Assembly: GCA_036397815.1 (NCBI GenBank)
Contig: DASWIE010000030.1
Coordinates: 3,272 to 67,271 of the forward strand
From: Candidatus Limnocylindria bacterium
Lineage (GTDB): Bacteria; Chloroflexota; Limnocylindria; QHBO01
Reading direction: 5' to 3'
DNA: 64,000 bases
In this document: one piece after another, positions 59,458 through 64,000 of the stretch
Position numbering within the stretch: the stretch's first letter is position 1
Layout: each line of letters opens with the position of its first letter
Made by a program: the position numbers and the translations under genes
Notes under the pieces: generated by a model
Databases searched by the model: none
Seen by the model: the letters and a program-made list of their open reading frames with translations, nothing else
Told to the model about the DNA's origin: nothing

Positions 59458-62442
59458 ATGGCCGGAACCACCCGCAAGCGTGTAGCGAAGCCGAAGGCCG
59501 CCACGAAGCCCGCTGCATCCACGGCGGCCGCTGAGGCATCGGCTCCGCCAGTCGCCCCCACCGGCCAGCTAATCTACACCTTCGCGGAGGGCAACGCCCA
59601 GATGCGCGCGCTCCTGGGAGGAAAGGGCGCGGGCCTTGCCGAGATGACCAAGGCGGGCCTGCCGGTGCCTCCCGGCTTCACGATCACGACCGAGGCCTGC
59701 AACGCCTACTACGCCGCGGGCAAGGAGCTGCCGCCCGGCCTGTGGGACGACGTGCTGGCGCACATGGCGGAGCTGGAGCGGGAGACCGGCAAGGGCTTCG
59801 GTGACCCGAACAACCCGCTCCTCGTCAGCGTTCGTTCCGGGGCGGCGTTCTCGATGCCCGGCATGATGGACACGGTCCTCAACCTGGGACTCAACGAGCA
59901 CACCGTGGCCGGCCTCATCGAGCTGACCGGCAACGAGCGCTTCGGCTATGACGCCTGGCGCCGCTTCATCGCCATGTTCGGGCGCATCGTGCTCGACATC
60001 CCGGCCAGCGAATTCGACGAGCCGTTCGACGCGCTCAAGGAGCTGCGCGGCGCCAAGCTCGACACCGACGTGTCCGCGGAGGATCTGCGCGAGATCGCGG
60101 ACACCTATCGGGAGGTCGTGCGCACGCACACCGGCGAGCATTTCCCGACGGATCCGTACAGGCAGCTGGAGCTGGCCACCCGCGCGGTCTTCGACAGCTG
60201 GTTCGGCAAGCGCGCCCACGACTACCGCGAGTTCAACAAGATCCCGCACGACCTGGGCACCGCGGTGAGCGTGGTGACCATGGTCTTCGGCAACATGGGG
60301 ACCGATTCGGGGACCGGCGTCGCCTTCACGCGCGACCCGAACACCGGGGCGAAGGAGCTGTACGGCGAGTACCTGACCAACGCCCAGGGCGAGGACGTGG
60401 TGGCCGGCATCCGGACGCCGGCCAAGATCAGCCACATGCGCGACGAGCTGCCGGAGGTCTACGGCGAGTTCACCGCCATCGCGGAGCGCCTGGAGCGGCA
60501 TTACCGCGACGTGCAGGACCTGGAGTTCACCATCGAGCGCGGCAAGCTGTACATGCTCCAGACCCGCTCAGCAAAGCGCACCGCGCCGGCCGCGGTGAAG
60601 ATCGCGGTCGACATGGCCAACGAGGGCATCCTGAGCAGGGAGGAGGCTCTGCAGCGGGTCGATCCCGCGCAGATCGTCCAGCTCCTGCTGCCGCGCTTCG
60701 ACGAGGCGGCCAAAGCCAAGGTGCAGGACCGCTTCCTGGCCAAGGGCCTGAACGCTTCACCCGGCGCCGCCACCGGCAAGGCGATCTTCGACCCGGATCG
60801 CGCGGTCGAGGCCAAGACGGCCGGCGACCCCGTGATCCTGGTCCGGATCGAGACCAGTCCGGACGACGTGCACGGCATGCTGGCCGCCCGGGGCGTGCTG
60901 ACCGCTCGCGGCGGCGCCACCAGCCATGCGGCTGTGGTGGCGCGCTCCATGGGCCTGCCCTGCGTTGCCGGGGCCGAGTCGCTGCTCATCGACTACGCCG
61001 AGCGGACCATGCGTGCCGGAGGCGTCACCGTCAAAGAGGGCGAGATGATCAGCATCGACGGCACCACCGGCGAGATCTACGCCGGCGAGCTGCCGACCAT
61101 CGAGGCCCGCTTCGAGGACGAGCACGACCTGGCCACCCTTCTCGAATGGGCCGATGCGGTGCGCCGCCTGCAGGTCTGGGCCAACGCCGACTATCCGCGC
61201 GACGCGGAGCGCGCTCGCGCCTTCGGCGCGCAGGGCATCGGGCTGTGCCGAACCGAGCACATGTTCTTCGAGGAGGAGCGGCTGCCGACGGTGCAGCGCA
61301 TGATCCTGAACGCCACGCGCGCCACCGAGGCCAAGCGCCGGCGGGACGCCGGCGCGGAGCTGGATGCCGACGACCGCGAGGCGGTGGAGGTCTTCGACGC
61401 CGCACTGGCCGAGCTTGAAACCGCCCAGACCGATGATTTCGCCGGCCTCTTCCGTGCCATGGACGGCCTGCCGGTCGTGATCCGCCTGATCGACCCGCCG
61501 CTCCACGAGTTCCTTCCGTCTCACGACGAGCTGCTGGTCGACGTCACGCGGCTGCGCACCATCCTCGAGACCGACGGCGCCAACCGGCTCGATGCTGGCA
61601 TCGTCCAGCAGGGGCTGGTGAAGCTGTTCGGCAAGAAGGACGCGGCGCGCGCGATGCGGAAGCTGCGGCTCTCCGGACCCGAGGCGGAAGGGAATGGAGT
61701 CGATCGGTCCAAGCTGGAGAGGGATCTGGCCGAGAAGGAGGAGCTGCTCGCCGCCGTCGAGGCGATGCGCGAGCAGAACCCGATGCTCGGCATGCGCGGC
61801 TGCCGCCTGGGGCTGCTGATCCCGGACATCGTCCGCATGCAGACCCGGGCCATCCTGGCCGGGGCGACGCGGGTGGCAGCCGAGGGGATCACCCCGCTGC
61901 CCGAGATCATGATCCCCCTCGTCGGCCACGTGAACGAGCTGGCCGAGACGCGACGCGTGCTCGAGGCCGAGGTCGCCCGCATCGTGATGGAGACCGGCCA
62001 GCAGGTGCGCTACAAGTTCGGGACCATGATCGAGGTGCCGCGCGGCGCGCTCACCGCCGACGAGATCGCGAAGCACGCCGAGTTCTTCAGCTTCGGCACC
62101 AACGACCTGACCCAGATGACCTTCGGGTTCTCGCGCGACGACGCGGAGGGCAAGTTCTTGCTCCAGTACGTCGACCGCAAGATCCTGCCGGAGAACCCGT
62201 TCCAGGTCCTGGATCGCGACGGGGTGGGGCAGCTGGTGCGCCTGGCGACCGAACGGGGCCGCAAGACGCGCAAGAACCTCAAGGTCGGCATCTGCGGCGA
62301 GCACGGCGGCGATCCGGCGAGCATCGCCTTCTGCCACGAGGTGGGGCTGGACTACGTCTCCTGCTCGCCGTTCCGCGTCCCTGTCGCGCGCCTTGCCGCC
62401 GCCCAGGCGGCGATCAGCGGAGCCGAGGCCCGCGACAAGTAA
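59458..62442 (+). CDS. ppdK: Pyruvate, phosphate dikinase with an N-terminal Lys/Ala-rich extension of about 30 aa
   Basis: IYTFAEGNAQMRALLGGKGAGLAEM, phospho-His region GGATSHAAVVARSMGLPCV, C-terminal PEP-utilising TIM barrel (CGEHGGDP.S). Confidence 0.95.
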   Translation: MAGTTRKRVAKPKAATKPAASTAAAEASAPPVAPTGQLIYTFAEGNAQMRALLGGKGAGLAEMTKAGLPVPPGFTITTEACNAYYAAGKELPPGLWDDVLAHMAELERETGKGFGDPNNPLLVSVRSGAAFSMPGMMDTVLNLGLNEHTVAGLIELTGNERFGYDAWRRFIAMFGRIVLDIPASEFDEPFDALKELRGAKLDTDVSAEDLREIADTYREVVRTHTGEHFPTDPYRQLELATRAVFDSWFGKRAHDYREFNKIPHDLGTAVSVVTMVFGNMGTDSGTGVAFTRDPNTGAKELYGEYLTNAQGEDVVAGIRTPAKISHMRDELPEVYGEFTAIAERLERHYRDVQDLEFTIERGKLYMLQTRSAKRTAPAAVKIAVDMANEGILSREEALQRVDPAQIVQLLLPRFDEAAKAKVQDRFLAKGLNASPGAATGKAIFDPDRAVEAKTAGDPVILVRIETSPDDVHGMLAARGVLTARGGATSHAAVVARSMGLPCVAGAESLLIDYAERTMRAGGVTVKEGEMISIDGTTGEIYAGELPTIEARFEDEHDLATLLEWADAVRRLQVWANADYPRDAERARAFGAQGIGLCRTEHMFFEEERLPTVQRMILNATRATEAKRRRDAGAELDADDREAVEVFDAALAELETAQTDDFAGLFRAMDGLPVVIRLIDPPLHEFLPSHDELLVDVTRLRTILETDGANRLDAGIVQQGLVKLFGKKDAARAMRKLRLSGPEAEGNGVDRSKLERDLAEKEELLAAVEAMREQNPMLGMRGCRLGLLIPDIVRMQTRAILAGATRVAAEGITPLPEIMIPLVGHVNELAETRRVLEAEVARIVMETGQQVRYKFGTMIEVPRGALTADEIAKHAEFFSFGTNDLTQMTFGFSRDDAEGKFLLQYVDRKILPENPFQVLDRDGVGQLVRLATERGRKTRKNLKVGICGEHGGDPASIAFCHEVGLDYVSCSPFRVPVARLAAAQAAISGAEARDK

Positions 62443-62452
62443 TACCCCGCCC

Positions 62453-62473
62453 GCGCCCTCAGGGCGAGGGCGT
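62453..62473. terminator. GC-rich hairpin (CGCCCTC-agggc-GAGGGCG) between convergent ppdK and the anti-sigma gene; candidate bidirectional terminator
   Basis: A 7-bp stem read from the sequence. There is no U-tract and it overlaps the anti-sigma stop codon. Confidence 0.25.
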
Positions 62474-63151
62474 CGGCGATGGCGTGGGCGTCTCGGTGAG
62501 AGTGGGCGTGGGGGTCGGCGAGGGCGTGGGCGTCTCCGACTCCGACGGTGTTGGCGTGGGGCTCCCGGTCGGGGTCGTGCCCGATGCGCTCGGCGTCACG
62601 GATGCGGATGGGCTCGCCGACACCGTCGGGCGCGGCGTGACGGGACGCGGCGCCGGGCCCGGTTGGATGAGCGGTGGCGAGGTCGGCGGCGGCGTCGGGG
62701 CAGCGGTCCCGGCGGGTTCCATCGACGAGGTCGATGCGGCCGATCCTTCTGCGCTCGGAGGCTGCGAGGACTCTCCCGTGCCGCCCAAGACGGCCTGGCC
62801 CGGCGTCTCGCCGGCGTTCGCGTCCACCCGGTCGGCCAGGCCCTGCAGGTCCATCATCCGCCAGGTCGCCAGCCCGATGAGCGTCGCGGCGACCGTCACG
62901 CCGGCGAAGGCAGCCGCGAATCGCCCAGCGCGACGGAGGGTGGTGACCGGCCGTCGGGCACCCGCCAGCGAGGGCGGCATGGTTGCTCGACCCGGATCGA
63001 TCGATGTGAGCAGATCCAGCGCGCTGATCCGTGCCGTGCAGGCGGCGCAGAGCGACGCATGCAGCGCAAGGTCGCGTGCCGGCTCGCCCCGCGCTCCGGT
63101 GAGCAGCCATTGGTCGAAGCGCTCGTGCGGATCCGCGGCGCGCCTGGTCAT
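62459..63151 (-). CDS. Zinc-binding anti-sigma factor (ZAS-type) with a TM helix and a Pro/Thr/Ser-rich extracytoplasmic tail
   Basis: HASLCAACTARI matches the H...C..C motif, followed by TM FAAAFAGVTVAATLIGLATW and a tail of PTPSPTPTP-type repeats. Its start overlaps the sigma gene stop. Confidence 0.75.
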   Translation of the reverse strand: MTRRAADPHERFDQWLLTGARGEPARDLALHASLCAACTARISALDLLTSIDPGRATMPPSLAGARRPVTTLRRAGRFAAAFAGVTVAATLIGLATWRMMDLQGLADRVDANAGETPGQAVLGGTGESSQPPSAEGSAASTSSMEPAGTAAPTPPPTSPPLIQPGPAPRPVTPRPTVSASPSASVTPSASGTTPTGSPTPTPSESETPTPSPTPTPTLTETPTPSPTPSP

Positions 63152-63819
63152 CGAGCGACGCCCGTGGGCGCGCCCATCGCGCGATCGGCGACCTCGCGAA
63201 TCCTGTCACCCAGCTCGCCACCTGGCGTATCGACCAGCTCCTGCGGATTCGCCGTCGCCATGACGGCGGCCAGGTATCGCTGCCGGGCACGCGCCACCGT
63301 CCGCAGGCTCGACCCGGTTGGCATCCCCAGGATCGTCTCCACGTCGATCGGATCGAAACGTTCGACCGTCGAGGCCACGAGCGCGGCGCGGGGCACGATG
63401 GGCAGCGCGGCAAGCCCGTCGAAGACGGGGTCCGCAGCTCCCAGGCCGCGCAGGGCCGCACGCCGCTCGCGATCCCATGGACCGGCACGCGGCCGAGATC
63501 CACGGCGGAGCCGGCGAAGGACGCGGGCCCGCAGCCAGGCGGCGGCCCGCTCGGGATGCCGCAGCTCGGCGGAGCGCCGGACTCCCTCCTCGAGTGCCCC
63601 GGTGGCGGCCCTCGCCGCGCGCGGCCGGTCGCCAAGCGAGACGAGCAGCGCGAATCCGTGCAGCCGCGCGCCGTGGATGTCACGGAACGCGGCGCGGCGC
63701 AGGGTCGGTTCGCGCAGATCGAGCGGTGGCGGTGGGGCGCGCGTGATGGGTCCTCCGGTGGGGAGCGGTGCGGTGCGGCCGGGTCAGCCGTGTGGAGTGT
63801 AGAACCCGCGTCCAGCCAT
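63148..63819 (-). CDS. ECF (sigma-70 family) sigma factor whose reading frame is interrupted by an in-frame TGA 11 codons after an RBS-preceded ATG; possible pseudogene or readthrough
   Basis: Manual translation of the minus strand gives region 2 (..FRDIHGARLHGFALLVSLGD...HPERAAAWLRARVLRRLRR) and region 4 (LAALP..PRAALVASTVERFDPIDVETILGMPTGSSLRTVARARQ). GGGAGG-N10-ATG at 63819 is followed by MAGRGFYTPHG-TGA(63786..63784), then the sigma domains in frame. No ATG/GTG/TTG occurs in the next 129 codons, so the track shows only the 82-aa tail ORF 63148..63396. Confidence 0.5.
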
Positions 63820-63847
63820 GGGCGACCCGCCTCCCGGTCGCCTGGCA

Positions 63848-63858
63848 CCCATCGGTCC
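63848..63858 (+). repeat. Copy D of the dispersed motif core CCCATCGGTCC, in the divergent region between the ECF sigma gene and a downstream + strand gene
   Basis: Exact 11-nt core. It lies 29 nt upstream of the sigma ATG on the opposite strand and about 97 nt upstream of the ATG at 63955. Confidence 0.5.
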
Positions 63859-63873
63859 GTGGAGGGGCCAACC

Positions 63874-63922
63874 TTGACAATGTGGTAAAATCAAGGCCCG
63901 CCCATTGACAAACCCCTTGACA
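63874..63922 (+). promoter_or_regulatory. AT-richer promoter region with three TTGACAA heptamers (63874, 63905, 63917) and an extended -10-like TGGTAAAAT (63883-63891)
   Basis: Read directly from the sequence; the spacing does not fit a single canonical -35/-10 pair. Confidence 0.3.
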
Positions 63923-63954
63923 AGCCGAACCAGTCGGCAGGACCTGCCACCCGT

Positions 63955-64000
63955 ATGACCTCCTCAGGCATCACCGCCGAGATCAAGTCCAAGCTGCCCG
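63955..64000 (+). CDS. 5' end of an unidentified gene (MTSSGITAEIKSKLP...), truncated by the window edge
   Basis: ATG after the promoter-like region; too short to classify. Confidence 0.3.
   Translation, partial: MTSSGITAEIKSKLP

Follow-up and report, generated by a model that had tools for sequence, protein, structure and literature searches.

In bacteria, the closest described cases of near-cognate start codons kept across orthologues are those of infC, which encodes initiation factor 3 (IF3), and of pcnB, in which AUU or AUC follows a functional Shine-Dalgarno (SD) sequence, initiates at a low level, is discriminated by IF3 and, in infC, serves regulation (PMC5499595). In this work, we describe a locus of comparable architecture in a 64,000-nucleotide stretch of DNA from Candidatus Limnocylindria bacterium (contig DASWIE010000030.1), hereafter the window. 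On its minus strand lies a gene for a divergent extracytoplasmic function (ECF) sigma factor, and based on comparisons with its relatives we consider it probable that translation of this gene starts at a conserved non-canonical ACG codon (63744-63742), 7 nt after the strong SD sequence GGAGGA. As in the infC-type genes, the near-cognate codon is kept in orthologues, an SD stands at initiation distance and the coding signature begins there. Unlike in infC and pcnB, the codon is ACG, with a second-position mismatch, the gene encodes a sigma factor, and a dependence on IF3 is putative.

Annotated bacterial start codons comprise ATG, GTG, TTG and, rarely, CTG, ATT, ATC and ATA, with ACG not included (10.1101/063800). 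In Escherichia coli reporters, SD-led ACG codons initiate with the native tRNAfMet at about 0.7-1.0% of AUG, compared with 3-8% for AUU, AUC and AUA (PMC3643588); the product has a Met N-terminus, and Thr N-terminal peptides were additionally found in one culture (bioRxiv 10.1101/063800). Those reporters were engineered, whereas the ACG described here is natural, appears to be maintained by selection across a gene family and is accompanied by a compensating strong SD. Genomic ACG starts are also found in plant organelle genes, whose transcripts are edited to AUG, and in VP2 of the adeno-associated virus (AAV) and C' of Sendai virus, but these require C-to-U editing or the scanning mechanism of eukaryotes. 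Neither process is known to us from bacteria, and genetic-code table 11 does not list ACG as a start. In full-text literature searches, all natural ACG starts that came up belonged either to plant organelles, with editing, or to mRNAs of eukaryotes or viruses. If confirmed, the start proposed here would be a natural bacterial ACG initiation codon under selection across deep divergence, for which the searched literature holds no precedent, and would be new in comparison with the infC-type start codons.

Two further groups of systems are relevant. In Listeria, replacement of the rsbW ATG by ATA or ATT provides a weak start within a sigma/anti-sigma module that sets the ratio of the two proteins and alters sigma activity (PMC13068326). 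There it is the anti-sigma gene that has the weak start, a product of laboratory selection, whereas here the sigma gene would have it, as an ancient feature, with the anti-sigma gene coupled downstream. The pairs SigW/RsiW, SigR/RsrA and SigH/RshA, each an ECF sigma factor with a ZAS anti-sigma factor, share with our locus a two-domain sigma-2/sigma-4 fold and a downstream, overlapping gene for an anti-sigma factor with an HxxxCxxC motif. Unlike them, the products of our locus are too divergent for the Pfam models Sigma70_r2/r4 and zf-HC2, the sigma-like protein is extended at its C-terminus by a tail of about 35 residues, and its gene is divergent from dnaG.

Conservation of the ACG codon and onset of the coding sequence

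The proposed initiation codon (63742-63744, minus strand) is in frame with the sigma gene and is preceded by the SD at 63751-63756. A metagenome scan with the single protein gave one locus, and close relatives were collected individually. In a DNA alignment of 18 close-relative sequences, picked by protein similarity alone, the ACG is invariant (18/18) and an SD is found upstream of it in every sequence. The codon directly ahead of the ACG varies among relatives (ATC, GTC, GAC, GCC, CTC, TCC, CTT, GAA, ACC or CAA). A 1-nt indel falls between the SD and the ACG, and the stretch between the ACG and the conserved core is aligned without indels. Ordinary Thr codons of the same genes are ACG in 51% of the cases and ACC in 41%, and even at an invariant Thr, ACG makes up 23 of 30.

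We also examined 81 loci from GTDB and metagenomes, in each of which the strongest SD was chosen blindly and the codon after it was then classified. An in-frame ACG was found 3-11 nt after the strongest SD, with no canonical start, in 40 loci. A canonical start occupied this position in 15 loci, in one of which (L040) ACG follows the ATG, and another near-cognate codon did so in 7, such as CTG in L032, L041 and L075 and ATC in L027. The SD was weak or absent, and the start ATG, in the remaining 19 loci. In a test that used no frame information, 39 of 40 such ACGs were in frame with the core. Distances from ACG to core differ by whole codons only (22-29). All 40 loci have a -10-like box 30-89 nt ahead of the ACG, at distances spread over all three mod-3 classes. 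GC contents at the three codon positions are 0.78/0.54/0.80 after the ACG and 0.86/0.60/0.83 in the core, and they are flat (0.62/0.65/0.63) before it. The GC periodicity typical of coding DNA and indels in multiples of three begin exactly at the ACG.

The ACG-type genes come from at least 40 genomes of related soil bacteria, belong to Limnocylindria/Chloroflexota, share 35-90% pairwise protein identity, and their start architecture recurs across dozens of unrelated assemblies. No in-frame canonical start occurs from the -10-like box to the ACG in 28 of the 40 distinct loci, and in 16 there is none anywhere from the box to the conserved core. Six have an in-frame stop within the leader; in L018, a TGA TGA TGA run begins four codons ahead of the ACG.

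The strength of the SD varies with the start codon. Start-codon classes were set without reference to the SD, which was taken as strong when it had a core of at least 5 nt at a spacing of 4-10 nt. A strong SD was found in 27 of 34 ACG-only genes against 1 of 29 genes with a canonical start (Fisher p=5e-10, a value inflated by the relatedness of the genes). The canonical-start genes, which include paralogues as well as orthologues, typically read CGAGGGCCG-ATG, with a 4-nt core and an unfavorable spacing of 4 nt. Since strong SDs go with ACG and weak ones with ATG, the strong SD probably serves the ACG. This pattern suggests that selection holds total initiation strength within a narrow, low range, and the inverse link between start-codon and SD strength would clearly illustrate compensatory tuning of initiation in nature. 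SD-led initiation is nothing unusual for this genome, as a GGAG-type SD precedes about half of the 42 coding-like open reading frames (ORFs) of the window; the full GGAGG precedes only 7. Internal ATG, GTG or TTG codons number 3.2 per 120 codons in ACG-type genes and 4.1 in ATG-type genes, a borderline depletion (p=0.051).

Variation around the start was observed in several family members. In L075, the ACG position is occupied by ACC, directly after a new CTG. Together with L032, L041 and L027, which also have neither ACG nor a canonical start, this locus suggests that several weak start codons are tolerated; L012 is a further member that lacks the ACG. In three other loci, an ATG was gained one or two codons ahead of a retained ACG (AGC-ATG-ACG in L040, AGT-ATG-ACG in L008 and GGAGGAC-ATG-CAC-ACG in L007), and these ATGs look like recent start 'upgrades' beside the ancestral ACG.

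The DNA ahead of the ACG codon

The preliminary description of this locus, made from the sequence alone, had drawn attention to a different start. An ATG (63819-63817, minus strand), separated by 10 nt from an upstream GGGAGG (63835-63830), opens a frame that encodes MAGRGFYTPHG and then meets TGA (63786-63784), with C as the next base. Past this TGA, the frame is open until the TGA at 63150-63148, and its earliest in-frame ATG, GTG or TTG is the GTG at 63396, which opens an ORF of 82 amino acids (aa). All these observations hold, and between 63795 and 63684 no ATG, GTG or TTG was found in any frame. The absence of a restart had been given a chance below 0.001, which agrees with the genomic background, as start-type codons make up 5.9% of the codons in the window's genes (P = 4e-4 for none in 129). 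It does not agree with the rate in the sigma family itself, which uses intrinsically few of them (2.65% per codon), and for which our arithmetic gives P of about 0.04 over the 116 start-less codons from the ACG to the GTG. Five relatives likewise lack any start-type codon over 120 codons. In a scan of the window's ORFs for further genes with long start-less leaders, only normal upstream overlaps were found.

The premise that ATG 63819 and its 'good ribosome-binding site' mark the start of the gene did not survive the comparison with relatives. Neither element is kept even at 75-85% protein identity, and in the 18-sequence alignment the ATG is replaced by ACC or ACT or is deleted. Between the conserved box described below and the SD, the same alignment has 1-nt indels and insertions of 36-40 nt. 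The comparison of orthologues at TGA 63786-63784, which the preliminary description had proposed, showed that the TGA is not conserved either and lies in a non-coding stretch with frame-breaking indels. The 'N-terminal extensions' annotated in homologues (AGRGFYTPH, WTRVLHSTPL and SAPEDPST) are in fact one DNA stretch translated in three frames. Judged from the alignment, ATG 63819 and TGA 63786 are chance triplets in promoter/5'-leader DNA, outside the gene. The 11-codon ORF that they delimit (63784-63819) lies across the promoter-like box and the beginning of the leader, and its frame is broken by 1-nt indels in relatives.

What is conserved in this region is a nearly invariant block, GCTGGACGCGGGTTC-TACACT-CCACAC. 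Of the 87 distinct loci with the core motif, 77 have the hexamer TACACT (63796-63801), conserved as TA[C/G/A]A[C/A]T, at a consistent distance, and 6 lack it. We regard it as a -10-like element and putative promoter of the sigma gene. No canonical -35 element was found for it, a conserved TTGCC/CTGGAC motif lying only about 8-9 nt upstream, and no typical ECF promoter of the GGAAC/CGT type was recognized upstream of the gene, where TACACT is the conserved box. With a transcription start about 7 nt past TACACT, the TGA would fall at roughly +4 to +6 and ATG 63819 would lie upstream of the transcript. The predicted 5' leader of about 45 nt (63745-63789) is C/A-rich (CCGCACCGCACCG), contains TGA 63786-63784 and appears unstructured. 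Its folding was no better than that of shuffled sequences (z=+1.24), for which reason we dropped a riboswitch or other structured leader, and no Rfam family matched 63400-64000 at E<=1.

The 5' leaders of the family (63760-63789 on the minus strand in the window, and L061, L062, L091 and L092) are made of C/A-rich pentamer repeats, CCGCA or CCGAA. About five copies of CCGCA stand in tandem in L062, and the leaders of L091 and L092 are longer by 36-40 nt. These repeats may act as a standby site or as an enhancer of translation. An inverted repeat with perfect 7-bp arms, GGCGACC-(GGGAGGCG)-GGTCGCC (63821-63842, minus strand), lies a short way ahead of the -10-like box, and its loop contains the GGGAGG of 63835-63830. 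Its arms are not conserved, and relatives have other GC-rich palindromes there, variable in sequence and length.

Alternative readings and proposed mechanism

Initiation at a non-canonical codon was one of the options named in the preliminary description, and it was right in kind, although the codon suggested, CTG 63717, was not the one favored by our data. Its other options were a recent nonsense pseudogene, UGA-C readthrough and a sequencing error, and for the latter the probability is practically negligible. Over 300 nt that include the ATG, TGA, SD and ACG, the window agrees 100% with three contigs from independent assemblies of other samples. We therefore take the sequence as real, and the loss of a true start or the creation of a stop by misassembly would have to be reconciled with ACG architecture in dozens of unrelated assemblies. 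A nonsense or start-loss pseudogene, or programmed readthrough from ATG 63819, has in its favor the ATG with GGGAGG-N10 and the in-frame TGA followed by C. Nevertheless, we consider both very improbable: these elements are unconserved and lie in non-coding DNA with frame-breaking indels and GC that is flat by frame, in which no conserved in-frame coding sequence stands ahead of a conserved stop, and the apparent extensions come from three frames of the same DNA. Moreover, dN/dS was 0.23-0.45 against ten relatives, length from the ACG is constant at 197-198 codons with no internal stop, and the same start architecture is found at 40 distinct loci. By these estimates, in which dS reaches about 1 between the window gene and ACG-type relatives, the gene is intact and under purifying selection. 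A start further downstream is little more probable. CTG is a recognized rare start, and GTG 63396 is the sole canonical in-frame start, picked by gene callers in four assemblies, of which the three identical ones (L095-L097) were given only the 82-aa ORF. As a start, however, CTG (63715-63717, minus strand) was rejected: it has no SD, is replaced by CAA in L001 and CAG in L006, and the coding signature, with its whole-codon indels, reaches further upstream, to the ACG. GTG 63394-63396 is an internal codon, Val117, within helix 116-127 of the sigma-4-like domain and without an SD. An 82-aa product from it would lack the entire sigma-2-like half, of which residues 8-81 are highly conserved and confidently folded.

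Two other alternatives leave the position of the start nearly unchanged. The ATC directly ahead of the ACG (63745-63747) is in frame, 4 nt after GGAGG, and is a recognized rare bacterial start; in E. coli, initiation at AUC exceeds that at ACG about 5-8 times (PMC3643588). If it were the start in this genome, ACG would be merely codon 2. This is the alternative to which we give most weight, but it is still unlikely, since, apart from the window, only L002 has the ATC, with other codons in the remaining relatives and a 1-nt indel between SD and ACG. Its spacing of 4 nt is short, and an ATC start would leave the invariance of the ACG at all three positions unexplained. Alternatively, the genomic ACG could be converted to AUG by site-specific C-to-U editing of the mRNA, in the style of plant organelles, so that the start would be canonical. 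Editing would account for the strict conservation of ACG after a strong SD, as no other codon becomes AUG by a single C-to-U change, and natural ACG starts in the searched literature come almost only from edited plant organelle genes and eukaryotic viruses. If true, it would be a bacterial counterpart of organellar start-codon editing, whose efficiency could act as an on/off switch for the sigma factor. On the other hand, we know of no site-specific C-to-U mRNA editing system in bacteria, near-cognate decoding of ACG requires no added machinery, and compensation by SD strength would be less expected for a codon made fully canonical by editing than for a weak one. We therefore consider editing improbable, about as much so as a downstream start.

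Direct initiation at the ACG is the reading that we favor, and several points weigh against it. All steps that lead from the conservation of an SD-preceded ACG to its use in initiation are ones that we infer from sequence comparisons. The loci are related, so counts and p-values overstate independence, and the ATG-type genes are mostly a single clade plus a few sporadic conversions. ACG is among the weakest near-cognate codons in E. coli, and expression could therefore be very low; in this genome, moreover, the ATC one codon ahead is a possible co-start. A noisy and limited scan of about 565 kb (the window and the loci) for SD-led ACG starts outside this sigma family found none, adding only two more members of the family (L015 and L025), so a general use of ACG by the lineage is not shown. 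An ARAGORN search of the window returned no tRNA. Lastly, a strict sigma-70 promoter and terminator scan of 63600-64000 returned nothing, for which reason the promoter role of TACACT and the transcription start are put forward as putative, with the hexamer as their evidence.

If the gene does start at the ACG, its expression could proceed as follows. The transcript would begin a few bases past the conserved TACACT box, and the unstructured C/A-rich leader, together with the strong and optimally spaced SD, would retain the 30S subunit. The initiator tRNA would then decode ACG as a near-cognate codon, mismatched at its second position, and would at a low rate start proteins with Met. Weak initiation would keep the sigma factor scarce and, through the ATGA overlap of the two genes, would limit the anti-sigma factor too, so that the ACG may provide weak, tunable translation of both. 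IF3 discriminates against non-canonical starts, and infC autoregulation exploits this discrimination, which is relieved at low temperature (PMC5499595). Synthesis of the sigma factor is probably sensitive to initiation fidelity in the same way as that of infC with its AUU start. Perhaps, although we hold this to be doubtful, the ACG start works as an IF3 or initiation-fidelity sensor that links the regulon of the sigma factor to the condition of the translation machinery. The locus would in any case offer a concrete system in which very weak near-cognate starts could be studied as regulatory devices of sigma/anti-sigma modules, for example in their sensitivity to IF3 or to stress.

The sigma/anti-sigma pair and its neighborhood

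The full coding sequence that we propose (63148-63744, minus strand) has 198 codons from the ACG, followed by the stop TGA at 63150-63148. The product had been described as a complete sigma-2/sigma-4 ECF sigma factor, which holds at the level of the fold but not at that of sequence profiles. A Pfam scan gave no Sigma70_r2 or Sigma70_r4/_2 match, by which ECF sigma factors are usually recognized, but only a PhyR_sigma-like match at E=0.03. In the NCBIfam scan, SigM was matched at E=7e-7 with 29 bits, far below its cutoff of 190, and the sole match of a PDB profile search was the sigma-like domain of a PhyR. The AlphaFold (AF2) model built from the ACG, in contrast, has the two helical domains expected of the ECF (group IV) branch of the sigma-70 family (pLDDT 87.7, pTM 0.79). 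Its top Foldseek matches in the PDB are all ECF sigma factors or PhyR (SigW 5wuq, CnrH 4cxf, RpoE 5uxx, SigH, SigL and AlgU), with probability 1.0 and target TM scores of 0.62-0.70 against compact, anti-sigma-bound forms, but E-values of only 1e-3 to 1e-2.

At E<=1e-3, 774 homologues were found, mostly in metagenome-assembled genomes of Limnocylindria, Chloroflexota and 'Dormibacteraeota'. Their predicted lengths are inconsistent (82, 146, 183, 194 and 216-251 aa), and promoter or leader DNA, read in three different frames, supplies many of the annotated N-termini. The family appears to be mis-annotated because gene finders and table 11 do not allow ACG starts.

The stop codon of the sigma gene overlaps the ATG of the next gene (63151) as ATGA (63151-63148), and both this 4-nt overlap and the partner gene are kept in relatives, as is expected of an ECF sigma factor with a cognate anti-sigma gene downstream. 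The partner (62459-63151, minus strand) encodes 230 aa with one hydrophobic segment, a Pro/Thr-rich tail and the motif LHASLCAAC, which corresponds to HxxxCxxC; no Pfam or NCBIfam model, such as zf-HC2, was matched at E<=1. From the overlap, we regard the two genes as translationally coupled. The modeled fold, the ATGA overlap and the HxxxCxxC motif support the earlier identification of an ECF-type sigma factor with a coupled, putatively ZAS-like anti-sigma factor, and on this evidence the two genes are a divergent ECF-type sigma/anti-sigma pair.

The sigma gene is divergent from dnaG and lies beside the PPDK gene, a synteny common to relatives. In L082-L085, genes for a PadR-family regulator and for a HAAS-domain protein are found between the anti-sigma gene and PPDK. 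Both are missing from the window (62442-62459) and from the identical assemblies L095-L097, where the stop of the anti-sigma gene directly adjoins the end of PPDK.

Between the sigma gene and the start of dnaG (63955, plus strand), the window has a block of about 50 nt (63872-63923) with three TTGTCAA repeats (63923-63917, 63912-63906 and 63880-63874). The block is almost identical in relatives with 75-85% protein identity, being conserved beyond the coding DNA. Its plus strand reads TGTGGTAAAAT (63881-63891), an extended -10-like sequence directed at dnaG, and two copies of TTGACAA follow downstream in the presumed dnaG leader. The block could be a regulator-binding array or the promoter of dnaG.

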